48,901 bases of DNA, from IMG/VR virus record IMGVR_UViG_3300045988_155985; one strand, written 5' to 3'. This stretch comes from a virus. Taxonomy: Duplodnaviria; Heunggongvirae; Uroviricota; Caudoviricetes. The notes under the pieces were generated by a model, which worked only from the letters and a program-made list of their open reading frames with translations, was not told where the DNA came from and searched no databases. Shown piece after piece: positions 1 through 48,901 of the stretch. Position 1 is the first letter of the stretch. Every line of letters starts with the position of its first letter. Made by a program: the position numbers and the translations under genes.

Positions 1-55
1 TTATACCCGAAACCGAGCGATACCCGCCCTGGTTAAACCGGAGATAACCCGATGA
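1..55 (+). promoter_or_regulatory. 3' part (conserved 5' leader and RBS) of the promoter-operator-leader cassette; identical to 48847-48901, so it continues from the window end
   Basis: Exact 55-bp identity between window start and window end; same leader precedes ATGs at 32394 and 41286. Confidence 0.5.
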
Positions 56-5735: not shown

Positions 5736-6286
5736 TGGCCATCGTCAGTAAGTCAGAGTTTGCCCGCCGGAAAGGTATTTCTCCGGCAATGGTTACGAAG
5801 CTCTGTCGTTCCGGTCGCATTCCAGTGCTGAAAAGCGGCAAGCTGGATTTTGATAAAGCAAGTGCGGCTTATGAAGCGAGCCGACAGGTTGGTCGTGAGG
5901 TATCTGCTGAAAACGGAAAAAGAGGGCATGGGATATCTTCGGAACAACCAGAGTTACCCGCTGATGATGCCGGATTAGCTGGTGGTACTTCCGGTGTTGC
6001 GGTGCAATTCAACAAGGCTAAGACCGCAGAAAAAATTTATCAGGCAAAGCTGAAACGCCTTGAATTTGAAGAAAAGGAAGGCTCTCTCATCGCTAAAGAT
6101 GCGGTCAGGGATGATGCATTTCTGGCAGCTAATGAATTGCGTAGCCGCTTATTTAGTATTGCTCCAAGAGCAGCTCCCCGTTGTGAAGGCAAAACAGCCA
6201 GGGAGATCGAACGCATTATTGAAGACGAGATTAATTTTGCGCTTCAGGCGCTCCAGGAATCCCGATTTATTAAGCAGGAAGAATAA
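5735..6286 (+). CDS. terminase small subunit, Nu1-like HTH type
   Basis: N-terminal HTH-like segment SKSEFARRKGISPAMVTKLCRSGRIPV; position before large terminase; ATG 5735 overlaps upstream stop (track start 5726 is TTG). Confidence 0.6.
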   Translation: MAIVSKSEFARRKGISPAMVTKLCRSGRIPVLKSGKLDFDKASAAYEASRQVGREVSAENGKRGHGISSEQPELPADDAGLAGGTSGVAVQFNKAKTAEKIYQAKLKRLEFEEKEGSLIAKDAVRDDAFLAANELRSRLFSIAPRAAPRCEGKTAREIERIIEDEINFALQALQESRFIKQEE

Positions 6287-6291
6287 ACCTC

Positions 6292-8148
6292 ATGGGCGAA
6301 ACAGTATGGAGCACCGCTTTTTTCCGTGCGCTTCGCCCTAAATCACGGCTAACTGTTTCCGAATGGGCTGATAAGTATCGTCATGTAGCGCCGGGAACGT
6401 CTCCAGAGCCAGGGCCGTGGCGTACAAGCCGAGTGCCATATTTGCGTGAACCAATGGATGTTATTGGTGACGCTGATACAGAAACAGTAGTGATGCAATG
6501 TAGCTCGCAAATTGGTAAATCCGAATTACAGCTAAATGTTATGGGTTACTTTGCAGATCAGGAGCCATCTCCTCAGTTGATGATTTATCCAACGGTAGAG
6601 GCGGCTGAGGCTTTTTCAAAAGAGCGTATTGATCCGACGTTCAAATATTCCCCTGGTTTGAAACACAAGCTGCATGAAGGGAAAGAGGGGCGCGGTGCAG
6701 CCAAAAAGTCCAGCACGACTATACGTATGAAGCATTACGCTGGTGGATATATAGCACTTGTTGGTGCTAATTCCCCAGCAGGTCTTGCATCCAGGCCAAT
6801 TCGAATACTGTTAGCTGATGAGATTGATCGTTACGGTGTGACGCAGGAGGGCGACCCACTAAAACTAGGTATTCAGCGTACTACCAACTTTCATAATCGT
6901 AAGAAAGTTTTTGTTTCTACTCCTGTTTTGGAGGAAACGAGCAAAATCCACAAGTGGTTTAAGCTCTCCGATCAGCGTTACTACCATGTTCCTTGCCCAT
7001 GTTGTGGCACCATGCAGGTGATGAAATGGTCGCAAGTCAGATGGGATAAGAGCGATTCAGGTGAGGCGTTACCGGAAACGGCCAGATATGAGTGCTGTGA
7101 GTGCGGCGGGATTATGCGCGGATCTGGTAAACCAGACGTTGATTGGTTGGCGAAGGGGGTATGGATAGCTGAACATACTGGAGTTAAAGGTATTGTTGGT
7201 TTTCATATTAACAGTCTTTACTCCCCGTGGGTTGCATTGTCAGAGCTGGTTGAAGAATTTACGGAAGCAACCAGAAACCGCGATAAAAATGGATTAATGG
7301 AGTTTATTAACCTTAAGCTGGGTGAGCCATGGAAAGAGGATGCTAAAGACGATATCGATCCTGAATACTTGTTGCAACGCAGAATAAGGTTTGAAGAGTT
7401 TTTACCAGATGATGTTTTATTGTTAAGTGCTGGTGTTGACGTACAGGACACGTATTTAGTTTGTGAATTGGTCGGTTGGGGAAAAGGTAAGGAGTCATGG
7501 GGGATAGAATATAAAATATTCCCAGGTGATCCCGCACAAGATGTTGTCTGGAAACAACTTGATGAATACTTACTCCGTAGCTGGTCATTCCGTGACGGTC
7601 GAAAATTACAGATTTCTTCCGTTTGTATTGACTCTGGTGGGCATTTTACGACAGAGGTATATCGCTTTACTAAGCCGAGAGAATCAAGGCGAATATACTC
7701 TATCAGGGGGCGTGGTGGGGTAGGTTTACCATTTATAGGAAAGCCAAATAATAATAACCGTGTGGGTGCTATGTTGTTTAATTTGGGGGTTGATGATGGT
7801 AAAGGGACCATCATGGCAAGAATTAAACTACATGATCCTGGTCCTGGTTATATGCATTTCCCATTAGATTCTGACAGAGGATATGATACCGAATACTTTA
7901 AAGGATTATTATCAGAGAAAAAAATATTTGAATATAAAAATGGGCAGACAAAAGAAAAGTGGGTGAAAGTCTACGAGCGTAACGAACCTCTTGATTGCCG
8001 TAACTATGCAACTGCCGCGATGGAAATTCTGAACCCTAATTTTAACTGGCTTGCCGAACAGGAAATGCGAGGTAATGTGTATGTGCAGAACTCGTCAGGT
8101 ATACGTAGAAGACGCCGTAGAGTTATAAGTAAAGGCGTAACCATATAG
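6292..8148 (+). CDS. terminase large subunit, lambda gpA-like
   Basis: 618 aa; recalled similarity to gpA (VSEWAD near N-terminus, CPCCG zinc-finger-like segment); gene order TerS-TerL-W-portal. Confidence 0.85.
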   Translation: MGETVWSTAFFRALRPKSRLTVSEWADKYRHVAPGTSPEPGPWRTSRVPYLREPMDVIGDADTETVVMQCSSQIGKSELQLNVMGYFADQEPSPQLMIYPTVEAAEAFSKERIDPTFKYSPGLKHKLHEGKEGRGAAKKSSTTIRMKHYAGGYIALVGANSPAGLASRPIRILLADEIDRYGVTQEGDPLKLGIQRTTNFHNRKKVFVSTPVLEETSKIHKWFKLSDQRYYHVPCPCCGTMQVMKWSQVRWDKSDSGEALPETARYECCECGGIMRGSGKPDVDWLAKGVWIAEHTGVKGIVGFHINSLYSPWVALSELVEEFTEATRNRDKNGLMEFINLKLGEPWKEDAKDDIDPEYLLQRRIRFEEFLPDDVLLLSAGVDVQDTYLVCELVGWGKGKESWGIEYKIFPGDPAQDVVWKQLDEYLLRSWSFRDGRKLQISSVCIDSGGHFTTEVYRFTKPRESRRIYSIRGRGGVGLPFIGKPNNNNRVGAMLFNLGVDDGKGTIMARIKLHDPGPGYMHFPLDSDRGYDTEYFKGLLSEKKIFEYKNGQTKEKWVKVYERNEPLDCRNYATAAMEILNPNFNWLAEQEMRGNVYVQNSSGIRRRRRRVISKGVTI

Positions 8149-23564: not shown

Positions 23565-25799
23565 GTGAGTAAATTATTATTTACGATGACTGACGCCGGG
23601 CGTCAGGAGCTGGTTAATGCCAACAAAACAGGAACAAATAAAGTTGAGATTGTTTCTGTTGGTTTAGGTAGTAGATATTATGTCACGTCAACTTCACAAA
23701 CAAATATAACAAACGAAATAAAACGACTTACCACAATAGGTGGCAAAGTTGTTTCCCCTGATACAATTCATGTAACAGCGAAGGATGATAGTAAAGATGA
23801 GTATGTTGTCCATACAATAGGATTGTATACGAATAAGGGTACGTTGTTTGCTGTATACTCACAAGAACAAGCAATAATAAATAAAGCATCATCTACTATC
23901 GCTTTAATATCAAGTGATATAGCAATTAAAACTCTTGATACTAAAAATATTACATTTGGTGATATTGAGTTTATTAATCCTCCCGCGACCGAAACTGTTG
24001 TTGGGGTGGCAAGATTTGCTAATGAACAAGAAATTGATGCAGGTACAGATGATTCCCTTGCTGTTTCAGCAAAGCGGCTTAAGCAAGCCATTGTGAAACA
24101 TGAGCAATCACGTAATCATCCTGATGCAACTTTAACCTCAAAAGGCTTTGTTCAACTTAGCAGCGCCACCAATAGCACGTCTGAAACGCTTGCTGCGACG
24201 CCTAAGGCTGTTAAGGCAGCATATGACCTTGCTAACGCTAAATACACCGCACAGGACGCTACCACAGCGCGAAAAGGGATTGTTCAGCTCAGTAGTGCCA
24301 CCAACAGCACGTCTGAAACGCTAGCAGCAACACCAAAGGCTGTTAAGGCAGCGTATGATCTTGCGGTCGGAAAGGCTCCGTCCAATCACACGCATTCGTG
24401 GGAGCAGATAACAAATGTGCCTGTAGCTTCACTGACTGTAAGGGGAATAACTCAGCTCAGTAGTGCCACTAACAGCACGTCTGAAACGCTGGCTGCGACA
24501 CCAAAAGCTGTTAAGGCGGTAATGGATGAAACGAACAAGAAAGCGCCCTTAAACAGTCCTGCGCTGACCGGAACACCAACAACACCAACTGCGCCAAAAG
24601 GTACTAACAATACTCAGATCGCAAGCACGGCTTATGTTATGGCTGCGATCGCTGCCCTCGTGGACTCGTCGCCTGACGCACTGAATACGCTGAACGAGCT
24701 GGCTGCGGCGTTGGGCAACGACCCGAATTTTGCGACCACCATGACTAACGCGCTTGCGGGTAAGCAACCGAAAGATGCCACCCTGACGGCGCTGGCCGGG
24801 CTTGCTACTGCGGCAGACAGGTTTCCGTATTTTACGGGGAATGATGTTGCCAGTCTGGCAACCCTGACAAAAGTTGGGCGGGATATTCTTGCGAAATCGA
24901 CCGTTGCCGCCGTTATCGAATACCTCGGTTTGCAGGAAACGGTAAACAGGGCTGGTAACGCCGTGCAAAAAAATGGCGATACCTTGTCCGGTGGGCTTAC
25001 TTTTGAAAATGACTCAATCCTTGCTTGGATTCGAAATACTGACTGGGCGAAGATTGGATTTAAAAATGATGCCGATGGTGACACTGATTCATACATGTGG
25101 TTTGAAACAGGCGACAACGGCAATGAATATTTCAAATGGAGAAGCAAACAAAGCACCACAACAAAAGACCTGATGACGCTGAAATGGGATGCACTAAATA
25201 TTCTTGTTAATGCCGTCATTAATGGCAGCCTTGGAGTTGGTACGACGAATGCGTTAGGTGGTAGCTCTATTGTTCTTGGTGATAATGATACCGGATTTAA
25301 ACAGAATGGAGACGGTATTCTTGATGTTTACGCTAATAGTCAGCGAGTATTCCGCTTTCAGAATGGAGTTGCTATTGCTTTTAAAAACATTCAGGCAGGT
25401 GATAGTAAAAAATTCTCGCTATCCAGCTCCAACACCTCCACAAAGAATGTAACGTTTAATTTATGGGGTGCTTCAACCCGTCCAGTAGTTGCAGAGTTAG
25501 GCGATGAGGCAGGATGGCATTTCTATAGCCAGCGAAATACAGATAACTCGGTAATATTTTCTGTTAACGGTCAGATACAGCCCAGCAACTGGGGGAATTT
25601 TGATTCACGCTATGTAAAAGATGTTCGCCTGGGTACGCGAGTTGTTCAATTGATGGCGCGTGGTGGTCGTTATGAAAAAGCCGGACACGCAATTACCGGA
25701 TTAAGAATCATTGGTGAAGTAGATGGCGATGATGAAGCCATCTTCAGACCAATACAAAAATACATCAATGGCACATGGTATAACGTCGCACAGGTGTAA
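23565..25799 (+). CDS. tail fibre protein: constant N-terminal part plus variable C-terminal part in the currently expressed orientation
   Basis: 744 aa; GTG start after AAGGAA; internal fibre repeats; crossover site at 24923-24946 lies inside the gene. Confidence 0.8.
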   Translation: MSKLLFTMTDAGRQELVNANKTGTNKVEIVSVGLGSRYYVTSTSQTNITNEIKRLTTIGGKVVSPDTIHVTAKDDSKDEYVVHTIGLYTNKGTLFAVYSQEQAIINKASSTIALISSDIAIKTLDTKNITFGDIEFINPPATETVVGVARFANEQEIDAGTDDSLAVSAKRLKQAIVKHEQSRNHPDATLTSKGFVQLSSATNSTSETLAATPKAVKAAYDLANAKYTAQDATTARKGIVQLSSATNSTSETLAATPKAVKAAYDLAVGKAPSNHTHSWEQITNVPVASLTVRGITQLSSATNSTSETLAATPKAVKAVMDETNKKAPLNSPALTGTPTTPTAPKGTNNTQIASTAYVMAAIAALVDSSPDALNTLNELAAALGNDPNFATTMTNALAGKQPKDATLTALAGLATAADRFPYFTGNDVASLATLTKVGRDILAKSTVAAVIEYLGLQETVNRAGNAVQKNGDTLSGGLTFENDSILAWIRNTDWAKIGFKNDADGDTDSYMWFETGDNGNEYFKWRSKQSTTTKDLMTLKWDALNILVNAVINGSLGVGTTNALGGSSIVLGDNDTGFKQNGDGILDVYANSQRVFRFQNGVAIAFKNIQAGDSKKFSLSSSNTSTKNVTFNLWGASTRPVVAELGDEAGWHFYSQRNTDNSVIFSVNGQIQPSNWGNFDSRYVKDVRLGTRVVQLMARGGRYEKAGHAITGLRIIGEVDGDDEAIFRPIQKYINGTWYNVAQV
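24145..24530 (+). repeat. three imperfect direct repeats of about 78 bp inside the tail fibre gene
   Basis: Repeated peptide QLSSATNSTSETLAATPKAVKA; copies at about 24151, 24283 and 24451. Confidence 0.6.
24923..24946. repeat. left inverted repeat / recombination site of the invertible segment
   Basis: CCTCGGTTTGCAGGAAACGGTAAA; exact reverse complement at 27888-27911; core resembles gix/cix sites as recalled. Confidence 0.7.
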
Positions 25800-28685: not shown

Positions 28686-28729
28686 TATGATTGTGGGTGT
28701 CTGGTTGGAAAGTGACCAGATATGGAAAC

Positions 28730-28850
28730 AAAAAGCCCGCAGATAAATCTGCGGGCTTCTTGCGACATCCACGGAAAACCAACAATTAACCATGGGCGCC
28801 TCGACAACTCCCATTATACGTTGGTTTTCCGTGGACGCAAGAGCGAACAT
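28730..28850 (-). ncRNA. candidate CopA-like antisense RNA against the repA leader
   Basis: Minus-strand terminator (hairpin 28735-28756 followed by T-run on the minus strand) and a 15-bp-stem hairpin at 28769-28834 just upstream of the repA ATG. Confidence 0.3.
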
Positions 28851-29699
28851 ATGGATAGACCAATGCCGTCTCTACGTTCAGCTTACGTTTGTAATTTGTC
28901 GCCGGAGTTCCAGCCTCCAAAGCACCATACGCACAAGCTGCCGCTGGTGTTATCTGATGCTTTACAGCGCATTAATGGGCGTGATCTTACGTGTGAGGTT
29001 GCGTTCTACGTTAATCAACCGTCAGAGCGGAAGCGCCGGATAAACGAGCATCGTCGTCGGGCGATTAATGCTGTGATCGCTGCGATTTTGCACCATGTAA
29101 ACATCATTTCTAAGCGGGTTCTGGCTAGTGCTGAGGCGTTGGCTGATTTTTGCGGCCTGTCTACCGTATCCGAAGCTGGGAACAAGTCTATAACGCGCTG
29201 TACAAGGGCGTTGTCGCAACTGAAAGCGTTAGGTTTTATTGATTATGAACGTCGCTGGGATCGGGTGAATAAACAGTATTGGCCAGCGAAAATAGAGATT
29301 CGTGATCAACTGCTGGAAACCGTTGGTATTACTGAACAAGCATGGAGACGTGCGGTTAGCCAGAAACTTAATTACTTCAATGCGAAGAATAGCGAACGGC
29401 TTAAAAAAGCGATAACGGAGGCTGATTATAAGCGTATTGTTATTCAGGAGCAGATGGAGAATGTATGGCGTCAGAGGAAGACGGCCAGAGAGATAAAGGC
29501 AAAACAGAAAGCAGCGGAGAGAGCTGCGCGTCTTGTTCGGGAAAAGGGAGAGGCCGAACTTCGTCATCAAATCACTAGAGAGGTTAGCCAGGAATTTGCT
29601 GATGGCATGTATCCTGGAGCTGACCTTGCATATTTACGATCCCTCGTTGAGCAGCGTTATAACAGGTTAAGAAAGACCTGGAAATCACTCCAACATTAA
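28851..29699 (+). CDS. repA: plasmid replication initiator RepA, IncFII RepA1-like
   Basis: Segment GNKSITRCTRALSQLKALGFIDY matches recalled RepA1 GKLSITRATRALTFLSELGLITY; basic C-terminal half; ATG 28851 preferred over track start 28722 because the leader is structured. Confidence 0.7.
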   Translation: MDRPMPSLRSAYVCNLSPEFQPPKHHTHKLPLVLSDALQRINGRDLTCEVAFYVNQPSERKRRINEHRRRAINAVIAAILHHVNIISKRVLASAEALADFCGLSTVSEAGNKSITRCTRALSQLKALGFIDYERRWDRVNKQYWPAKIEIRDQLLETVGITEQAWRRAVSQKLNYFNAKNSERLKKAITEADYKRIVIQEQMENVWRQRKTAREIKAKQKAAERAARLVREKGEAELRHQITREVSQEFADGMYPGADLAYLRSLVEQRYNRLRKTWKSLQH

Positions 29700-32280: not shown

Positions 32281-32393
32281 TATTTATATAATTATAGATT
32301 TATATAAAAAGTGCTTTACAGGTGGGAAAAAATTTCCTAAGGTTATACCCGAAACCGAGCGATACCCGCCCTGGTTAAACCGGAGATAACCCG
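32281..32393 (+). promoter_or_regulatory. promoter-operator-leader cassette, copy B
   Basis: AT-rich repeat 32281-32310; -35-like TTTACA 32315-32320; 17-bp spacer with inverted repeat GGAAA-AAA-TTTCC; -10-like TAAGGT 32338-32343; conserved 50-nt leader. Confidence 0.5.
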
Positions 32394-32774
32394 ATGAGCA
32401 TGATTAAAATCCGCAAAAACGCTTTCCTTAAAATTCAAACTATCCTGGCTGGTTCTGTTGGCGTGATTTGCCGTTCTTCCTCAAGCCGCATCGATGACGG
32501 CTACGATGATGAGTATCGTGTGTCCTCATGCGATGAGGCTTTAACCTGGCTGAAGGAGAATCAGGAACGTGCCCAGGTATATCTGGAAACAGAGAACGGC
32601 AATCAGATGCTGCGTATTAGCGGTCGTTATGGATTTGAAACTACATTCATGGCCTATTTTAATCAGGCTTACTTTGACAAGGAGTTGGCTTGGTACACTG
32701 ATCGCATGAGCAAAAGCGAGCCAGCCCCGATTACACCGCCGAACAATAAACCATTTTTATTCCTCGTTAAGTAA
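32394..32774 (+). CDS. hypothetical protein, 126 aa, first gene of cassette B
   Basis: ORF track; ATG within conserved leader context. Confidence 0.5.
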   Translation: MSMIKIRKNAFLKIQTILAGSVGVICRSSSSRIDDGYDDEYRVSSCDEALTWLKENQERAQVYLETENGNQMLRISGRYGFETTFMAYFNQAYFDKELAWYTDRMSKSEPAPITPPNNKPFLFLVK

Positions 32775-32782
32775 ACACAATG

Positions 32783-32809
32783 CGCAAAGTGTCATTTTGA
32801 CACTTTGCG
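32783..32809. promoter_or_regulatory. perfect 27-bp palindrome (12-bp arms), candidate operator
   Basis: CGCAAAGTGTCA-TTT-TGACACTTTGCG; half-site AAAGTGTCATTTTGA recurs at 41116-41130. Confidence 0.35.
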
Positions 32810-32837
32810 AGTGTTAATATTGTGCGAGGAGGGTGCT

Positions 32838-33110
32838 ATGACGGGTTATGAATTGAAATTATGGCGTCGTGGGATGAACTGGACGCAGGAGCGAGCCGCC
32901 GAAGAATTTGGGATATCGTTGGCTACATATAAGCGATATGAGAAGGGGGAGCCGCCGAGGGTCATTGAGATGGCCATTCGCGTTCTGTCGTTTGACGATA
33001 TGGTGAAGGATCTTTCACACCTTGATAAAGACGCGATTCTGTTAAGGCTGCAAACCCTTGTATGGGAAAAGGTTAAAGTGTCGTCAGAATTGGAACAAGG
33101 GATCAAATGA
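32838..33110 (+). CDS. HTH (Xre-like) transcriptional regulator
   Basis: HTH WTQERAAEEFGISLATYKRYE; ATG 32838 after GAGGAGGG (track start 32805 is TTG inside the palindrome). Confidence 0.55.
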   Translation: MTGYELKLWRRGMNWTQERAAEEFGISLATYKRYEKGEPPRVIEMAIRVLSFDDMVKDLSHLDKDAILLRLQTLVWEKVKVSSELEQGIK

Positions 33111-33155
33111 TCCTTTACGGATCGTTTTATGGTGGTGTAATGTAAGCGCCAGAAA

Positions 33156-33186
33156 GACAAAAACCGCCTTGCCGGGCGGTTTTCAG
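33156..33186. terminator. bidirectional rho-independent terminator
   Basis: Hairpin AACCGCC-TTGCCG-GGCGGTT flanked by A-run and T-run. Confidence 0.55.
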
Positions 33187-33919
33187 TCTGAAATTTAAAT
33201 CTTGCTTGGTAGGCTGGATTTAAAAAGACACCTCTTGATTGGGGCGGCTTTCTTGCGTCTAAAGATAATCAAATCTTTTTGCGCCTGCAACCCCTTTTTT
33301 ACTGGTGCCCATTTCAGACTCACGCTCGCGTCGTTGTCTTTGCCACTTCGTTGGGTTCGGTGTTTTTGGGCGAAGTGGCGCGCGGGTATGCGTACAAGGG
33401 GAAAGTGTGCTGACGCAAGCCAGGAACAGCGATCTAAACTAAGTCGAGTCTGAGAAAGGCAGGAGTGCGACAACTCGCCTGTGCTCTATGAGCAGAAGAA
33501 GGTATATCAGACGACCAATGGCATGATTGTGGGCCACAGGGCGCACACGGCGGCGAAGCATTGGAAACGATGTGGAGCTATCTGGTGGCATGAGTTCCGG
33601 TACTCGATCTCGAGCTTTTTTTGATGCTTTTGAGAAGGGGCCGGAACTCCGGTAAAGGGCACCCTGTATGGGGGGAGGGGGGGTTGTGTCTGAAGGGTGG
33701 TTATCGGTTATGGTGGAATTATGATGCGTAGAAAAGCGAGTTTGCTGCAAGCTATTGGGTCCATTATTTCTTTGTTTCCGGCAGTTGATCATTTTCGTCA
33801 TATGGCGACACGTTCCAGTATGGGCTTGGCGCGTGACGCTGACGCTATTCGAAAGGATTTTCAGAAAGTCTCTGGTGTTGATAAGAGAGAAAAGAGTAAG
33901 GGGCCGTAGCCCCTTGTAG

Positions 33920-35065
33920 TTATGGTCTGCTTTTCTGTGCCAGCTTATCAGCACATGTTTTTATCAGATCCTGTAGTGTCCTGGCTGGCAGGTTTGCATC
34001 CAGAACGCTGAGTATGCTGTTGTGATCAGCCTGGTCGACTACTTTGCCTGTCGGTGGTAGTAGCTTGAGCTGAGGATTCAGGTTTTCGTCAAAGCTGATA
34101 AGTGCTCTGGCGTTTCTGAGCAGATCAAGAAGTAAGGCTGATATCACATTTTCCTGAGTCATTGCTGGCAGATTTAGCGCCGCTTTAGTTTTCCCTGTTG
34201 CCTTGTCAAACTCCTTGATTAGTTCCTTCCTGTAGTTCGGTTCCGTTAATAGCCGATTATGCTCTGTTGCCGCGCGGATAATCGTTTTTTCCTGGTATAG
34301 TCGTTTAGCCAGATCACGCTCGTACTGTGTTTTTAACACGCTGCTGATAGCGTTAAAGGCTTCAATGTAGGCCAGCTTGATATCTTTCACGCCTGGACCG
34401 TCGATGCTCTCCATGAGCAAGGTAAATCCGTCTTTTGTCATGCGATAGATTGTTATTTCGCGGTCGCTTCCTTCCAGCGGTCGTTGTTCTTTAAAAAAGT
34501 GACGCGCCGCAGCTGTGCGAGGAATGCGTAACGCATCGATGGCCATAACGATGGAATTGTTTGTGGTGCTGAATGCCTGGGCAACATCGGCTGAGGTTGT
34601 GAGTGGCTCGTTATTGCACACCTTAATGTAAAACATCGGTTTGGCGTTGAGCGTATCGACAACCTCACGAGCATTGTTTGGCGAGACGGTTACGGTCGCG
34701 GCCGTTTGCGCGTTCTGGTTGAAATAGCAGTCTTCCAGTTTTTCGAACACATCCCAAGCCTGATCGGTTTCAAGCATTTTGGCGTGACGTGCAGCCCCGC
34801 GTTCTGTCCAGAGGATGAGGGAGCGGACTTTAGGTGAAACTGGATTTTGTGAGTAGTTTAAAGCTACCCGCAATTCTTTAAGGTCATTACCAACAACTTT
34901 GAAAAAGTGTTTCCCTTCAACGAAACGTACTTTGTTCTCATGATGATTCTGGCGAATACGCACCGGCTCAGTGCCGTAAAGCTGTGCCAGTAACTCGGTA
35001 GTAATGACAGGGATTTGGTTATGCAGGATAGGCTGTAGGGTGTTAACGGTCGGAAGCGTTTTCAT
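33920..35065 (-). CDS. antirepressor (Ant-like) with ORF6N/Rha-like domains
   Basis: 381 aa; N-terminal VITTELLAQLYG and central ADVAQAFS segments resemble antirepressor/Rha-family domains. Confidence 0.7.
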   Translation of the reverse strand: MKTLPTVNTLQPILHNQIPVITTELLAQLYGTEPVRIRQNHHENKVRFVEGKHFFKVVGNDLKELRVALNYSQNPVSPKVRSLILWTERGAARHAKMLETDQAWDVFEKLEDCYFNQNAQTAATVTVSPNNAREVVDTLNAKPMFYIKVCNNEPLTTSADVAQAFSTTNNSIVMAIDALRIPRTAAARHFFKEQRPLEGSDREITIYRMTKDGFTLLMESIDGPGVKDIKLAYIEAFNAISSVLKTQYERDLAKRLYQEKTIIRAATEHNRLLTEPNYRKELIKEFDKATGKTKAALNLPAMTQENVISALLLDLLRNARALISFDENLNPQLKLLPPTGKVVDQADHNSILSVLDANLPARTLQDLIKTCADKLAQKSRP

Positions 35066-35253
35066 TTTGTACCTCCCATAACTACTTTGGTTACGAGGGC
35101 GATTTTTGCGTCAGAAACAGCGTTATCGTTGCTGGCGATGCGCATAGCTTCTCGCTCAATGATTTCAGCCAGGCGGAATTTATCGGCGTATGAGGCTTTC
35201 TTGAGAAGGATCTTTACGAGGTTGACGTAATAGTCATGGGGTAGGTTTGTCAT
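35062..35253 (-). CDS. small protein translationally coupled to ant (icd-like position)
   Basis: 63 aa; stop TGA overlaps ant ATG (ATGA). Confidence 0.45.
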   Translation of the reverse strand: MTNLPHDYYVNLVKILLKKASYADKFRLAEIIEREAMRIASNDNAVSDAKIALVTKVVMGGTK

Positions 35254-35418
35254 TGTGATGATTCCCTTAAAGGTTAAGGATACTCACCACCGTCAGGTTC
35301 CAATCATTGGGTGGTGAGACGTGCAGGGTTGGAACTACCGGACACAATGACGAACCGGCGAGTCTTACGACTCCCCCGCACGCCCCACCATAATTTGGGT
35401 GTAGCAGTGCTTTACGCA

Positions 35419-35440
35419 TAAAAAAACCGCTAACGCGGTA
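35419..35440 (-). terminator. minus-strand rho-independent terminator
   Basis: On the minus strand: hairpin ACCGCGTTAGCGGT followed by TTTTTTT. Confidence 0.5.
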
Positions 35441-35585
35441 TGCGCCATTGTGTCTACGGGGTTCCAATCCCGACCGTAGATTTTGCTACGGCTCGGAAAG
35501 TGTCCACCAATGGCGCATTCATGTCAATACGGCGGGATTTTAACAGAGACAACCACATAGCGTGGGTTTATTGGTAGGCAGAAAC

Positions 35586-35613
35586 AAAAAAACCGCCCTA
35601 TTGAGGACGGTTC
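35586..35613 (-). terminator. minus-strand rho-independent terminator
   Basis: On the minus strand: hairpin AACCGTCC-TCAATA-GGGCGGTT followed by TTTTTTTG. Confidence 0.55.
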
Positions 35614-35760
35614 TTTCGTGCTGATCGGATTCGCGGTCCTTTCAGCATAACGTCGTTGTATAAACAACCACGCAAGCACAAGCGGCGTATCTATTCTTAC
35701 TCAACTGAGGTGAATAGTCCACTATTCATATAAAGAAATTTAGTTCCTTAGTTCATGCAG
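35586..35760 (-). ncRNA. candidate small regulatory RNA upstream of the ant operon (c4-like position)
   Basis: ORF-free leader on the minus strand ending at terminators; self-complementary motifs GGTTCCAA and TTGGAAC nearby; no promoter defined. Confidence 0.25.
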
Positions 35761-35999
35761 AATGAAGTTTTTTAACTTCTTCGGATGTAATTACATGTAA
35801 TAAAAGCATTTGTTATTCCTTCATTATGAAGGCGAGGACGTGTAATATGGCTTGGGGCCTTTTCGCCGATTCGCACCCGGGCACCGACTTTAAGGAAAGG
35901 ATCATCCACTTGCCGTACACGCAAGCACAAGCGGTGTGCTTGCTCTCGCGTCATTTTCGTCGGTGGAGATGCCGTGAAACGGCCTGTAAGGGCCACACA

Positions 36000-36122
36000 A
36001 TGAAAAAATACTACATGTGTATTTTTATCGTTGTTACTGGAGCTTTGTTTACGCCACATGGGGAGGGTTGGAAGATTACTGATAACGCTCTGAATGTGAC
36101 GATAAACATTAGCAGCAAGTAG
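36000..36122 (+). CDS. small hydrophobic peptide, 40 aa
   Basis: MKKYYMCIFIVVTGALF N-terminus; ATG 36000; strong terminator immediately downstream. Confidence 0.3.
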   Translation: MKKYYMCIFIVVTGALFTPHGEGWKITDNALNVTINISSK

Positions 36123-36128
36123 CGATTA

Positions 36129-36150
36129 GGCCCCTTCGGGGGCCTTTTTT
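36129..36150 (+). terminator. rho-independent terminator
   Basis: Hairpin GGCCCC-TTCG-GGGGCC followed by TTTTTT. Confidence 0.6.
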
Positions 36151-36372
36151 ATGGTTGAATTTAAACGCTGGAGCGCATTAAGCCTTTCAGAACTGCTTCA
36201 CGTACCCATTCTGGCCTGGTAGATAGCAGGGCAAATAAGCAACCAGCTTGCAGCCGTTTGAGGTCGGTTAGACGAGTTTTCAGTAACCGTGTATATTGTT
36301 GTTCGGACATAACAAATTCCCCTTGTTGTGTCGCGACGGCCAACAGTTGGCGCTGGAGGCCGTCACCTTCTC

Positions 36373-36627
36373 TTACTTCTGGTTGTATTGAGCCTTGAGT
36401 AACTCAAAAGACTTTGTCAGCACTTCTTTCAATGACATATCCATTGAGCTGGCGAACGTTTTGTACTCGCGTTTAAATTCAGGGTCGACGTTAAACGCCA
36501 TTTGTGCCCCACCTGATTTGGTTCTGGCTGGCGTTTCAGTCGGGTCGAAAACCTGCGGTTGTTCGATCGATGGCGGTACGCCTTTGCTGTTCTTCTTTGG
36601 TGGTTTTGATGGTGCGGCCATGTGCAT
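36373..36627 (-). CDS. small partition/centromere-binding protein, ParG-like (ribbon-helix-helix)
   Basis: 84 aa downstream of parA; basic flexible N-terminus and C-terminal RHH-like segment. Confidence 0.55.
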   Translation of the reverse strand: MHMAAPSKPPKKNSKGVPPSIEQPQVFDPTETPARTKSGGAQMAFNVDPEFKREYKTFASSMDMSLKEVLTKSFELLKAQYNQK

Positions 36628-40406: not shown

Positions 40407-40735
40407 GATATACCGGCTTTCGCAAACCAGCGACCAGGAAAAGCAAATACGGCAATAAAAAAACTGTTGTCGATGATATCTCTTTTGATAGCAAAAAAGA
40501 GGCTGATTACTACTGCGAACTGAAGCTACTGAGAAAAGCTGGCCGCGTTGTGACGTTTCTTATGCAGGTGCCTTTTCATCTGCCAGGTGGTGTCGTTTAT
40601 AAACTTGATTTCATGGTGTTTTATGACGATGGGACGATTGATTGTGTCGACACTAAAGGTGTGCGAACAGACGTCTACATCATGAAGAAAAAGCAGGTAG
40701 AGGCGCTTTATCCCGTCACGATACGGGAGATCTGA
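40403..40735 (+). CDS. DUF1064-family phage protein
   Basis: KYGNKKTVVDDISFDSKKEADYYCELKLLRKAG matches recalled DUF1064 signature. Confidence 0.55.
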   Translation: MRYTGFRKPATRKSKYGNKKTVVDDISFDSKKEADYYCELKLLRKAGRVVTFLMQVPFHLPGGVVYKLDFMVFYDDGTIDCVDTKGVRTDVYIMKKKQVEALYPVTIREI

Positions 40736-40738
40736 ACA

Positions 40739-41116
40739 GTGAGACGCGATCTGGATAGCTTGTTTGAGCTATGGGCGCTGTGGGTGCGCAATGGCTGCAA
40801 CGCCCGTAGCGGTTTCGCGTCGATGTTAGAAATGATGATGGTTACGCGCTGCCAGTTTACCGGAGGGGGCGGCGCACCAAATGACTCACTGGAAACCAGT
40901 ATCGAGGGAGCGGTGACGGCCCTCACGGTAGTTGATGAGACTGCGGCGCTGGTTGTCCGAATTGAATACGGGGCGTGGGAGATTCGGGGCCTCGACATAA
41001 ATGCACCGCATATTGATAAAGCCCACGCCCTTTCTCTTAGTCTCAGACAGTATCGCCGGAAGCTGGCAAAAGCCAGGGCGTATGTTGTCGACTATTTGAA
41101 AAAGCGAAGAGAGTAA
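40739..41116 (+). CDS. putative late-gene antiterminator, Q-like
   Basis: 125 aa; pattern LWALWVRNG...GFASM...LRQYRRKLAKARAYV resembles Q-family; sits before a promoter cassette. Confidence 0.4.
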   Translation: MRRDLDSLFELWALWVRNGCNARSGFASMLEMMMVTRCQFTGGGGAPNDSLETSIEGAVTALTVVDETAALVVRIEYGAWEIRGLDINAPHIDKAHALSLSLRQYRRKLAKARAYVVDYLKKRRE

Positions 41117-41166: not shown

Positions 41167-41285
41167 AAATCTATAAATATATAATTATAGATTTATATAA
41201 AAAGTGCTTTACAGGTGGGAAAAAATTTCCTAAGGTTATACCCGAAACCGAGCGATACCCGCCCTGGTTAAACCGGAGAAATCTG
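41167..41285 (+). promoter_or_regulatory. promoter-operator-leader cassette, copy C
   Basis: AT-rich repeat 41167-41203; TTTACA 41208-41213; spacer with GGAAA-AAA-TTTCC; TAAGGT 41231-41236; conserved leader. Confidence 0.5.
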
Positions 41286-42353
41286 ATGAATAAACAAGAA
41301 ATTATTTCTGACTGGATCAACAACCCTAACAGCCTGTTAAGCACTGATACTGGCTACCTATTACGCCATGTTAATGGTCGTATGGTCAAAAGCGATGAGC
41401 ACGAAACCTTTTTCTTTGTTGAAGACGATGGGCGCATCTATGAGGATGGTTACTCTTATGAAGCCCAAACTGGTTGTATCCCTGCGGAGCTGGTGGACGT
41501 AACAGAAGATCTGCGCAAAGCATGGCTTGAACAGCAGCAGCGCGGAGATGATTACGTAAACACCTATCAGGAACGCCAGAACGCGCGTCTTGCCCGATAT
41601 ATTGCTCGTGCAGAAAAAGCCAGAAAAGAAGGTGCGGTAGCGCATAAGCGAGCGCATGACCTGTTGGATGTGATCCCGTTAGGCCAGCCGATTTTAGTTG
41701 ACCATTATAGCGCGAAAGGCCATCGCCGCCGTTTGTCTAAAGCTGATGCGTTATTAAGAAAAGCGTTTGTTGAATGCGAAAGTAAAGCATCACACTACGA
41801 GAGCAAAGCCGCAGGTGTTGGTCGTAATGGAATTTCGTCTGATGATCCTGATGCGCTATTTAAGTTGCTTCGTAAGCTGCAAGGCTGCATGAAGTCACAC
41901 GTCAAAATGAAGGCCGCAAATAAGGCCATTCGCAAATACAAAAAAGACCAATTACAGCAGCTTTCTGCATTAATCGATCTCAGGTTTACAGAAAGCGAAG
42001 CCAAAGAGTTACTGGCCGGAGATTTCTGTGGGCGCATCGGATTCCCTTCATACGCACTGAGCAACAATAACGCCGAAATCAAACGACTACAGAGCCGTAT
42101 TAAGGAGCTTGAATCGGTCAAGTCTGTAACAGGAGCACAGCGCGAAGAATACGACGGCTTTTCTATGGAGATAGATCCAGAGGATAACCGCATCCTGTTT
42201 TATTTCCCTGGCAAACCAGAGGCAAACATTCGTTCGCTGCTTAAATCACGCGCCTTTAAGTGGAGTCCAACCCGTAATGCATGGGTTCGCAAGATTACTC
42301 CAAACGCCCTGGCTGATGCCCGATATCTAAAAGAATCGCTATTGAAAGCCTGA
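41286..42353 (+). CDS. hypothetical protein, 355 aa, first gene of cassette C
   Basis: ORF track; basic helical C-terminal half; no catalytic motif recognised. Confidence 0.5.
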   Translation: MNKQEIISDWINNPNSLLSTDTGYLLRHVNGRMVKSDEHETFFFVEDDGRIYEDGYSYEAQTGCIPAELVDVTEDLRKAWLEQQQRGDDYVNTYQERQNARLARYIARAEKARKEGAVAHKRAHDLLDVIPLGQPILVDHYSAKGHRRRLSKADALLRKAFVECESKASHYESKAAGVGRNGISSDDPDALFKLLRKLQGCMKSHVKMKAANKAIRKYKKDQLQQLSALIDLRFTESEAKELLAGDFCGRIGFPSYALSNNNAEIKRLQSRIKELESVKSVTGAQREEYDGFSMEIDPEDNRILFYFPGKPEANIRSLLKSRAFKWSPTRNAWVRKITPNALADARYLKESLLKA

Positions 42354-47813: not shown

Positions 47814-47889
47814 GGCCCCTTAGCTCAGTGGTTAGAGCAGGCGACTCATAATCGCACGGTCATCGGTTCAAATCCGGTAGGGGCCACCA
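47814..47889 (+). tRNA. tRNA with CAU anticodon (Met or lysidine-dependent Ile2; resembles ileX-type)
   Basis: Perfect 7-bp acceptor stem GGCCCCT/AGGGGCC; D-arm GCTC/GAGC; anticodon loop CTCATAA; T-arm with TTCAAAT; encoded 3' CCA. Confidence 0.85.
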
Positions 47890-48102
47890 ATTCACTCTCA
47901 CACATAAAGATGAGCACGAAGGAAGTAACTCCACCGCGCTTATCTTTATGCGTGCCTGGTGCGCATTTCGGGCGAACGTGGGGCTAAGTTACAGGCAGGG
48001 CCTGTTATCCGCAAAGGGGTAAAAGCTGGAGCGGCACGGAACTGTAGCCGTGTTACCAAAACAGCGTTGTCGGGCGATATCCGGCACACAACAGGCAAGG
48101 GC

Positions 48103-48135
48103 ATTAATCAGTCTGGTTAGTGCCCTTTTCGTTGT
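48103..48135 (+). terminator. hairpin/terminator downstream of the tRNA
   Basis: GGGCATTAATCAGTCTGGTTAGTGCCC followed by TTTTCGTT. Confidence 0.4.
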
Positions 48136-48197
48136 GTTTGCTGTAGAGCTGGCCAGCGTTATGACTGCCGGAGATAAGCGCCGGAGACACAACTAAC

Positions 48198-48785
48198 ATG
48201 GAGGCAATTGCATTGTTTAATCTGATTTATGCAGATCCCCCCTGGGAATACAAAGACAAGTGTAAGGATGGGAATCGTGGCGCTGGTTTTAAGTATCCAA
48301 CGATGAAAGCTGAGGATATTGCTCGTATTCCTGTCTGGCAGCTTGCTAATCCTGAATCGTGTTTGTTGGCCATGTGGTGGGTTCCGACTCAGCCAGAAGA
48401 AGCGTTGCTGGTGGTGAAAGCATGGGGATTCAGGCTGATGACCATGAAGGGCTTCACATGGAACAAATGTGGTAGCCGACAGCCAGACAAGCTGGTGATG
48501 GGGATGGGGCATATGACTCGTGCAAACAGTGAAGATTGCTTGTTTGCGGTAAAAGGCAAACTGCCGACCCGCCTTGATGCGGGGATTATTCAGTCGTTTA
48601 CATCGCCTCGTCTGGAGCATTCTCGGAAGCCTGATGTGGTCCGTGACAAGCTGGTAAAGCTGTTAGGCGATGTTCCTCGTATTGAGCTGTTTGCTCGCGG
48701 TGATTTACCTGATGGCTGGCATGGCTGGGGCAACCAGTGCAACGGAGGTATCCAGTTGCATGATGCTCTCTGGCAAATGTCATAG
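48198..48785 (+). CDS. DNA N6-adenine methyltransferase, MT-A70 family
   Basis: LIYADPPWEY (DPPW motif); 195 aa. Confidence 0.75.
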   Translation: MEAIALFNLIYADPPWEYKDKCKDGNRGAGFKYPTMKAEDIARIPVWQLANPESCLLAMWWVPTQPEEALLVVKAWGFRLMTMKGFTWNKCGSRQPDKLVMGMGHMTRANSEDCLFAVKGKLPTRLDAGIIQSFTSPRLEHSRKPDVVRDKLVKLLGDVPRIELFARGDLPDGWHGWGNQCNGGIQLHDALWQMS

Positions 48786-48901
48786 AATTATATAATTATA
48801 GATTTATATAAAAAATGCTTTACAGGTGGGAAAAAATTTCCTAAGGTTATACCCGAAACCGAGCGATACCCGCCCTGGTTAAACCGGAGATAACCCGATG
48901 A
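48786..48901 (+). promoter_or_regulatory. promoter-operator-leader cassette, copy D (same physical copy as window start on the circle)
   Basis: AT-rich repeat 48786-48815; TTTACA 48819-48824; spacer with GGAAA-AAA-TTTCC; TAAGGT 48842-48847; leader continues as 1-55. Confidence 0.5.

Follow-up and report, generated by a model that had tools for sequence, protein, structure and literature searches.

What, if anything, is encoded by the roughly 0.7 kb of DNA that separates a small helix-turn-helix (HTH) gene from the convergent antirepressor gene ant in the tailed-virus record IMGVR_UViG_3300045988_155985? The record was analysed over its full 48,901 nucleotides (nt), referred to here as the window; the original prediction had described positions 33190-33900 as an interval poor in open reading frames (ORFs) and rich in structure, which could be either a structured non-coding RNA or a decayed gene remnant. 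The inverted repeats, palindrome, T-run, G-tract and 33697-33909 ORF that it listed are all found where it had placed them. Its bounds have to be redrawn: the unit conserved among relatives runs from ~33045 or 33100 to 33692, takes in the hairpin at 33156-33186 that had served as left-hand border, and leaves out the 33697-33909 ORF. That this block of ~650 bp, which begins inside the HTH gene and covers its last ~65 nt, folds as a structured plus-strand RNA is well supported by comparative modelling, the exact ends of the RNA being less certain; more tentatively, and by analogy, the block may be a new, divergent ColE1-like origin of replication, primed by RNA and controlled by an antisense RNA, or else an RNA module under such antisense control.

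Sliding identity across six diverged lineages rises to 0.85-1.0 at ~33045 and drops sharply after 33692, an abrupt right edge that lies 9 nt past the G-tract. In alignments that took in Klebsiella, Salmonella, Yokenella-type, Citrobacter and metagenomic relatives, identity within the block is 89-90%, compared with 70-78% for the backbone and 68-77% for the adjacent HTH protein. Against a complete Salmonella relative with a mean identity of 74%, the eight 300-nt windows that fall within the block are all among the nine best of the genome, and the block is its best-conserved stretch. A core at 33383-33442 (plus strand) is 100% identical in all lineages and contains GGGG at 33398-33401, 272 nt upstream of the G-tract. 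Two natural variants carry clean internal deletions, one of 50 nt at ~33341-33390 that corresponds to the covarying hairpin described below (L051, metagenome Ga0308157_10026280) and one of 22 nt at 33442-33463 (L056), which suggests that some helices are dispensable.

Taken by itself, the sequence of the window gives modest evidence of folding, with minimum-free-energy z-scores of -2.95 for the plus strand and -3.18 for the minus strand relative to shuffles; the main support for its structure-rich character, which the analysis bears out, is covariation. An RNAalifold consensus of 20 distinct sequences comprises 177 pairs, with 99.4% of cells paired. Double compensatory changes affect seven pairs in three helices (33201-33216, 33342-33379 and 33559-33574), and ~30 more pairs alternate between G-U and A-U or G-C. 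Cells changed on both sides number 49, versus 15.6 ± 5.4 in column shuffles (0/500), and sliding the partners by 1-3 columns makes pairing fall to 41-48%. The signal is strand-specific: all wobble changes are of a sort that the plus strand tolerates, and 97.5% of variable-pair cells are paired on the plus strand, versus 66% when the structure is mirrored to the minus strand. The strongest covariation is that of helix 13, where GCCACTTCG/CGAAGTGGC stands against GCTGTCTCG/CGAGATAGC and others across lineages; in helix 21, GCATTGGAAACGATGT likewise stands against GTGCTGGAAACGGCGC and GTACTGGAAACGGTAC. Helix 22, whose outer arms are the 9-bp inverted repeat GAGTTCCGG/CCGGAACTC (33592-33600/33641-33649) and enclose the palindrome CTCGATCTCGAG and a T7 run, has only G-U-compatible substitutions. 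A long-range helix at 33055-33064/33392-33401 (helix 2) was rejected, being invariant except for one change, which breaks pairing. The covariance-model search that had been suggested was run with Rfam 15 and places the RNA in no known family: the whole window at gathering score and positions 33000-34100 at permissive E-values gave only chance-level matches in the region, where Phe_leader and RNAI were rejected as terminator-driven and snoRNA and lncRNA matches as chance. The four gathering-level matches of the window (ryfA, C4, isrK and a tRNA) all lie outside the block.

Its description as ORF-poor also stands, as all ORFs of at least 32 amino acids (aa) inside 33195-33700, on both strands, are frameshifted or stopped in diverged lineages. 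A test for a protein-coding gene or pseudogene found no reading frame preserved across the block between diverged relatives, and one for a type I toxin-antitoxin (TA) system of the hok/sok kind found no small ORF in the block conserved across lineages. The structured RNA that the original prediction had offered as one alternative is thus upheld by a block that codes for no protein in any lineage, exceeds the coding backbone in conservation and shows plus-strand changes that are compensatory or compatible with G-U pairing.

The ORF at 33697-33909, which had been counted as part of the region, belongs to a separate cargo insert. It starts with GTG and spans 70 aa; annotators begin it at ATG 33721 or 33724, as a hypothetical protein of 62 or 61 aa. 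Its homologues are all at least 95% identical, it matches no Pfam or PHROG family, and in relatives the insert is either absent (L002, L004, L023) or replaced by a gene for a 211-218-aa protein with two transmembrane (TM) segments (phrog_23465; L005-L008, L022, L027-L029). The 61-aa ORF is therefore lineage-specific cargo outside the conserved feature; the idea that it is a remnant of the 211-aa cargo protein was rejected because the two show no similarity. In cargo-less relatives the ant terminator hairpin stands directly 3' of the G-tract block, and in the window the stop codon of the 61-aa ORF sits within the loop of this shared ant-side hairpin. The site after the G-tract (33693 onward) is a cargo-exchange hotspot that has the block as its upstream border. 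The PHROG 23465 protein, diverged and with two N-terminal transmembrane helices (examples at L005:2147-2782, L022:1480-2136 and L029:3401-4045), is plausibly a moron of the superinfection-exclusion type.

At its 5' end the block is predicted, from folds, a minus-strand terminator and weak promoter matches, to carry an antisense control module (Table 1). In every relative fetched, the XRE-type HTH gene has a gap of ~600 nt behind it, also where a different gene lies upstream; homologues of the HTH protein at 53-57% identity (L025, L026) come without the element. The palindrome GGATCAAATGATCC overlaps the HTH stop codon and abuts the putative -35 box of a sense promoter. The constant association of gene and element, together with this palindrome, suggests a CopB/CopR-like repressor, making the HTH protein a candidate regulator of the sense promoter; an XRE-type repressor of ~90 aa, it presumably resembles CopR. 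Just upstream of the HTH start codon, 32800-32838 holds the palindrome ACACTTTGCGAGTGT and a TAATAT -10-like box. The HTH-plus-element module begins at ~32788 in relatives without the 126-aa gene, and the HTH gene may for this reason have its own autoregulated promoter.

The first hairpin of the predicted sense RNA, with arms AAAACCGCC/GGCGGTTTT at 33160-33168/33175-33183, had been described as a bidirectional terminator at 33156-33186. The hairpin is there, but the scan counts it (33158-33185) as a terminator in one direction, that of the minus strand, on which a U5 tail follows; the plus-strand tail is only U4. Its sole variable base, 33173 (C/A), is in the loop. The top and loop of stem-loop II (33195-33215) form the most variable part of the module and show compensatory changes, and in stem-loop III the loop differs between lineages (33235-33239) on a constant stem. 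Lineage differences in the sense/antisense overlap sit in the loops of stem-loops I, II and III while the stems are kept, as would be expected, by analogy, if specificity were determined by loop-loop ("kissing") contacts. In 4/4 lineages tested (z = -3.2 to -3.7), the fold of the predicted antisense RNA has three stem-loops, of which the last is the terminator, and both hexamers of its putative promoter are invariant in alignment A3.

This arrangement resembles the CopB-CopA/CopT system of R1/IncFII plasmids and CopR-RNAIII of the Inc18 plasmid pIP501 in that a small repressor gene lies directly upstream of the controlled promoter and a short antisense RNA opposes the 5' part of the sense RNA, terminating beside the repressor gene. 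Unlike those systems, which control a downstream rep gene at the level of translation or transcription, the module continues into ~430 nt of structured RNA and a G-tract; a search for such a leader role found that the IncFII repA gene (28722-29699) is 3.4 kb upstream and that nothing coding follows the block in cargo-less relatives. The immI regions of P1 and P7 (C4, icd-ant) offer another parallel, as the loop variants could define heteroimmune or incompatibility types and a genuine C4-icd-ant operon adjoins the module. C4, on the other hand, regulates ant and is processed out of a transcript that also contains its targets, whereas the module lies on the other strand with terminators of its own and gives no match to the Rfam C4 clan.

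The G-tract at the other end is singular within the 48.9 kb: its two runs are the only G runs of at least 6, and the only other G/C homopolymer that long is C6 at 48237. It is invariant except in one variant and starts 23 nt before the conservation edge at 33692. By analogy with the G6 run of ColE1, it is a putative site of R-loop or persistent-hybrid formation. The GGGG of the invariant core is reminiscent of the upstream rG run of ColE1 that Masukata and Tomizawa reportedly described in 1990. In conserved sequence block (CSB) II of human mitochondrial DNA, a G5-6AG7-8 tract forms a hybrid G-quadruplex/R-loop that stops transcription and gives a replication primer. Phage T4 oriF/oriG and CSB II share with the module a G-rich non-template tract at the end of a promoter-proximal transcript, and the G6AG7 form is nearly identical to that of CSB II, no evolutionary link being implied; the polymerases and hosts differ, so that an R-loop made here with Escherichia coli RNA polymerase would be a matter of analogy only.

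Table 1. Features of the conserved block and its immediate surroundings, in window coordinates.
Feature	Position	Strand	Basis or remark
XRE-type HTH gene, 90 aa	32838..33110	+	Pfam HTH_3/HTH_31
Conserved non-coding block, whole module	33045..33692		sliding identity, 6 diverged lineages
Palindrome GGATCAAATGATCC, candidate operator	33100..33113		near-invariant in alignment A3; putative role
Three GATC (Dam) sites, spacing N4 and N7	33101..33123		1 match in window vs 0.01 expected
Putative sense promoter TTTACG-N18-TAATGT	33114..33143	+	weak consensus, by eye; predicted start ~33151
Structured non-coding sense RNA, "RNA II-like", ~542 nt	33151..33692	+	RNAalifold; 5' end inferred; 3' limit set at conservation edge
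Predicted cis-antisense RNA, "RNA I-like", ~105 nt	33152..33256	-	folds
Stem-loop I of sense RNA = terminator of predicted antisense RNA	33160..33183		scan, alignment
Stem-loop II (helix 8)	33194..33224		conserved lower stem TTTAAATC/GATTTAAA
Stem-loop III	33223..33252		loop UUGAUU 33235-33240
Putative antisense promoter TTGCAG-N17-TATCTT	33262..33290	-	by eye; predicted start ~33255
Hairpin with strongest covariation (helix 13)	33342..33379	+	3 double-change pairs and G-U switches
Second covarying hairpin (helix 21)	33559..33574	+	3 double-change pairs
Hairpin with 9-bp outer arms, inner palindrome and T-run (helix 22)	33592..33649	+	sequence, alignment
G6AG7 tract GGGGGGAGGGGGGG	33670..33683	+	sequence; proposed R-loop/persistent-hybrid site
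Lineage-specific cargo insert, ~205 nt	33693..33897	+	carries 61/62-aa ORF
Bidirectional terminator hairpin, common to cargo/sense transcript and convergent ant	33898..33915		promoter/terminator scan, which reports 33898-33928

The element is carried by a complete circular E. coli phage-plasmid. The first 55 nt of the window (1-55) recur as its last 55 (48847-48901), and the window is accordingly an entire circular genome of ~48,846 bp with an assembly overlap. Its sequence shares 99% identity with Yersinia phage vB_YpM_39/41/44, on the first of which no paper was found in the literature, and with ~60 plasmids of 44-52 kb from E. coli, Escherichia, Klebsiella and Salmonella; the pSLy3 group was also considered as this family and rejected, having turned out to be SSU5-like. 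P2-like tail genes are combined with lambda-like head and terminase genes, and the genome also encodes the IncFII-type RepA, HigBA, ParA and a CI-like S24 repressor. A P1-type immI operon on the minus strand (35307-35492, 35062-35253 and 33920-35065) comprises an isrK/c4-a1b1-like target element, C4 antisense RNA, an icd-like 63-aa gene and, at 33920-35065, ant, an ORF6N/Rha antirepressor; a ryfA-family (type I TA-like) RNA at 35853-36150 (plus strand) adjoins this arrangement. The element is present in 62 PLSDB records and the capsid gene in 61, which makes the element a core feature of the ~48-kb phage-plasmid family. Among phages, plasmids and E. coli genomes, BLAST in "distant" mode detected it only within this family, and exact-pattern scans with conserved 18-25-mers, five of viral contigs, two of genome contigs and one of metagenomes, returned only family members (84-100% identical) or chance matches (L018-L021, L042-L043, L059-L062). 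No replicon type is given for any PLSDB record examined, and the annotation of the block stretch shows nothing.

As to the context of its possible function, no phage replication initiator, helicase or RepL was found in the genome besides the IncFII RepA. G exceeds C on the plus strand in every 1.5-kb bin, including those over the minus-strand genes ant, parA and cI, and such a one-sign skew suggests unidirectional replication or some other genome-wide strand asymmetry. It is compatible with unidirectional rightward replication, the direction of RepA/oriR and of the proposed primer RNA; because it keeps one sign around the whole circle, it cannot place the origin.

The yardstick for membership in the ColE1 family (ColRNAI) is the one of Ares-Arroyo et al. 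2021 (PMC8683028), namely a whole ~550-bp origin detectable by an origin sequence profile; ColE1 origins are there ~550 nt long, with an RNA I of ~100 nt and three stem-loops in enterobacterial ColE1 replicons. The profile used here was built from seven diverse ColE1-type origins, versus 81 in that work, with a pMB1 origin query that is 100% identical to a natural plasmid. Searched with nhmmer, it gives one match in the window, at 33097-33183 (plus strand, E=2.3e-5), which is colinear with the RNA II promoter and first stem-loop and aligns TTTACG/TAATGT with the -35/-10 boxes of ColE1-type RNA II (TTGAGA/TAATCT). The ColE1-family alignment has GATCAAAGGATCTTCTTGAGATC at the RNA II promoter, with the same N4/N7 spacing of GATC sites as the window, and a passage of PMC7736820 cites a study of GATC sites at the ColE1 primer promoter. 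Conversely, the top four matches of a promoter-only profile of the present family are all on ColE1 loci: three are at the RNA II promoter position on the plus strand (each E=0.16-0.4, at loci that share promoter sequence), and the best (E=0.02) is on the minus strand of the same GATC-rich region. The hairpin at 33592-33649 has a weak, non-significant colinear similarity (E=3.7) to the hairpin just upstream of the ColE1 origin.

Beyond these matches, the likeness to ColE1 is one of layout. Both do without an initiator protein or conserved ORF, and the distance from predicted start to conservation edge, ~542 nt, compares with the ~550 nt of ColE1 origins (PMC8683028). A weak putative promoter is embedded in three identically spaced GATC sites; a terminator-like stem-loop at about +10 to +35 would double as antisense terminator; three stem-loops with variation in their loops are overlapped by a predicted antisense RNA of ~105 nt, versus ~100 nt for RNA I; and the central region is more conserved than the sense/antisense overlap. 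From the first G of the tract to the edge it is ~23 nt, and in ColE1 the G6 run likewise starts at -23 from the origin; the rightward orientation of the RNA agrees with the genome-wide skew. There are differences too: detectable homology is limited to the ~85-nt segment of promoter and stem-loop I and is dominated by a generic terminator hairpin, the conserved core motifs of ColE1 are missing from the block, G6AG7 stands where ColE1 has G6, the block comes after a palindrome and an XRE-HTH gene of its own, rop is absent, and the carrier is a 48-kb phage-plasmid with an IncFII RepA, the block never having been found on small plasmids. The element is thus not a ColE1 member by sequence; the proposal is that it may work like one.

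The mechanism that we tentatively put forward, at somewhat less than an even chance of being right, would run as follows. A sense RNA of ~542 nt would start near 33151 from the weak promoter in the triple-GATC cluster, downstream of the XRE repressor gene, and its first ~105 nt would form three stem-loops overlapped by the ~105-nt antisense RNA, itself made from the minus-strand promoter (33290 to 33262) and ended at the strong terminator of that strand (33183 to 33160). The two RNAs would meet through their loops, so that lineage-variant loops would set specificity in the form of incompatibility or immunity types. A sense RNA that escapes the antisense RNA would fold and reach the G6AG7 tract, where its G-rich part would remain paired with the C-rich template in an R-loop; processing by RNase H would turn this RNA into a primer, and DNA polymerase I would extend it rightwards. 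The module would then be a class B theta origin, independent of an initiator protein, beside the IncFII RepA replicon, and could serve lytic amplification or the boosting of copy number. That a widespread family of phage-plasmids of E. coli, Salmonella and Klebsiella possesses a second, initiator-free R-loop origin under XRE, Dam-GATC and antisense control, with loop variants as specificity types, and uses it to amplify phage DNA by host enzymes alone, is a wider statement that we consider slightly less likely still.

A number of observations weigh against such an origin. When the ColE1 profile is split, its significant score comes from the terminator-like stem-loop I (E=5e-5), and the hairpin at 35582-35618, of the AAAAACCGCC...GGCGGTTTTT type, matches the stem-loop I profile slightly better (E=8e-6); as this unrelated hairpin scores too, matches to the stem-loop I/RNA I-terminator profile are generic. 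Sub-profiles for the promoter only, stem-loops II/III, the middle and the origin-proximal part gave no significant match in the window. Rfam RNAI (RF00106) reaches 18.1 bits (E=0.26) in a 221-nt search, versus a gathering score of 47, with its middle stem-loop unaligned, and has no match at E<=1 in L007, L022 and L023. Membership in the ColE1 sequence family was rejected on these split-profile controls, since they trace the full-profile E=2.3e-5 to the terminator hairpin. The promoter scan called neither the sense nor the antisense promoter, both being weak consensus matches. The structure was derived from the same alignment that was used for covariation, to which ~5 lineages contribute, and the long-range helices, including those with the G-tract, differ between predictions. 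The conservation of the block could come in part from recent recombination of the module. Every carrier of the element, among the PLSDB records and the 32-kb derivative examined, also has RepA, so that a second origin is unnecessary to explain maintenance, and no small plasmid with the element alone was found; the derivative in question, the deletion plasmid pCREC-544_3 (32 kb), retains both RepA and the element and is for that reason uninformative on the point. With RepA in every carrier and no element-only mini-plasmid seen, autonomous replication by the element is conjectural, and it is unneeded for maintenance.

Three readings, that of an origin and the two that come next, share the well-supported core of a conserved plus-strand structured RNA. 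The first of the two others, which we hold to be rather unlikely, takes the block for a long structured leader under antisense control that gates the downstream moron slot, whether filled by the phrog_23465 protein or by the 61-aa ORF, and that may also gate convergent transcription against the ant operon by attenuation or antitermination. Cargo genes, where present, do lie on the same strand directly after the block with no obvious promoter of their own, and the P1-like C4-icd-ant immunity operon is transcribed towards the module, which faces it. The RNAalifold model also has a composite hairpin closed by GGGG (33241-44) and CCCC (33293-96) and followed by U6 (helix 10), which would act as a switchable terminator. 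An antisense RNA combined with a small repressor is the classic attenuation layout, as with CopR and RNAIII of pIP501. Against this, the block is intact and equally conserved in lineages without cargo (L002, L004, L023, L031-L034), conservation of the cargo falls far short of that of the leader it would have, and ~430 nt of invariant, covarying structure extend past the antisense overlap, far beyond the needs of an attenuator.

Somewhat less probable still is a large trans-acting RNA of a new class, non-replicative, whose level would be set by the antisense RNA and the HTH protein and which might have a part in immunity or anti-defence, sequester a protein or be directed at the host. Such an RNA would agree with the failure to place the element in the ColE1 family by sequence and with a conserved, covarying, ORF-free transcript of ~540 nt that belongs to no Rfam family, forms a discrete terminator-bounded gene in cargo-less relatives and lies in the accessory and immunity part of the genome, beside TA systems, ant and C4; but no target or partner can be named, the relatives all belong to one phage-plasmid family and so provide no independent context, and the triple-GATC promoter, the G-tract at the conservation edge and the parallels in length with ColE1 are left unexplained.

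It is improbable that the block acts as DNA, be it as a packaging, partition, dimer-resolution or recombination site or as a single-strand initiation signal with hairpins formed by the DNA. There is a sharp recombination junction at 33692, DNA hairpins tolerate G-T wobble too, and clusters of GATC occur in the P1 pac site and in origins. By eye, TATGCGTACAA at 33388-33398 resembles a XerC half-site; no XerD arm follows it, and a cer/Xer site was rejected on this account. The strand-specific G-U-compatible substitutions in many helices argue against a DNA site, as do the location of terminase, ParA and the sites expected with them elsewhere in the genome, the absence of an integrase, and a multi-helix structure of 600 nt, which is atypical of protein-binding sites. 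A decayed gene or a protein-coding region without RNA function, to which the several 40-90-aa ORFs of the window sequence and the annotators' hypothetical protein might point, can be set aside as most improbable, because a remnant would neither be the best-conserved stretch of the genome nor keep its helices, every in-block ORF is broken in other lineages, and the 61-aa ORF, itself no part of the block, is either absent from relatives or exchanged for another gene and has near-identical homologues only, with no family match.

If the block is an RNA-primed origin, it would account for genome amplification in a phage whose only recognisable replication gene is that of a low-copy IncFII RepA, and phages and large replicons would join the range of the ColE1 mechanism. 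The block would then represent a ColE1-like replicon lineage too diverged for current replicon typing, a class invisible to such schemes that would bear on incompatibility, jumps in copy number and the dosage of cargo genes. Should it lack origin function, it remains a new, well-supported structured RNA of ~540 nt and the most constrained sequence of the element. Phage-plasmids of this ~48-kb kind are common in E. coli of clinical and animal origin, and the reference strain ATCC 25922 carries one.

Several features elsewhere in the window deserve mention. Apart from the element, the best-conserved stretches relative to the Salmonella genome are four that stand at 85-90% identity: 6150-6500, which coincides with the start of the terminase gene and is a possible cos region; 36150-36600, between ryfA and parA, which is a possible centromere; 40450-40900; and 47950-48300. 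A tRNA gene is located at 47814-47886, near the lysis module, and the tail-fibre gene contains three imperfect 93-nt repeats (24140-24532). Finally, a 114-nt direct repeat is present in three copies that are 92-100% identical (32284-32397, 41177-41290 and 48788-48901, the last continuing into 1-55); every copy runs up to the start ATG of an operon's leading ORF, one of the three operons being that which ends in the HTH gene, and the repeat looks like a shared promoter/leader cassette that puts three operons under common control.

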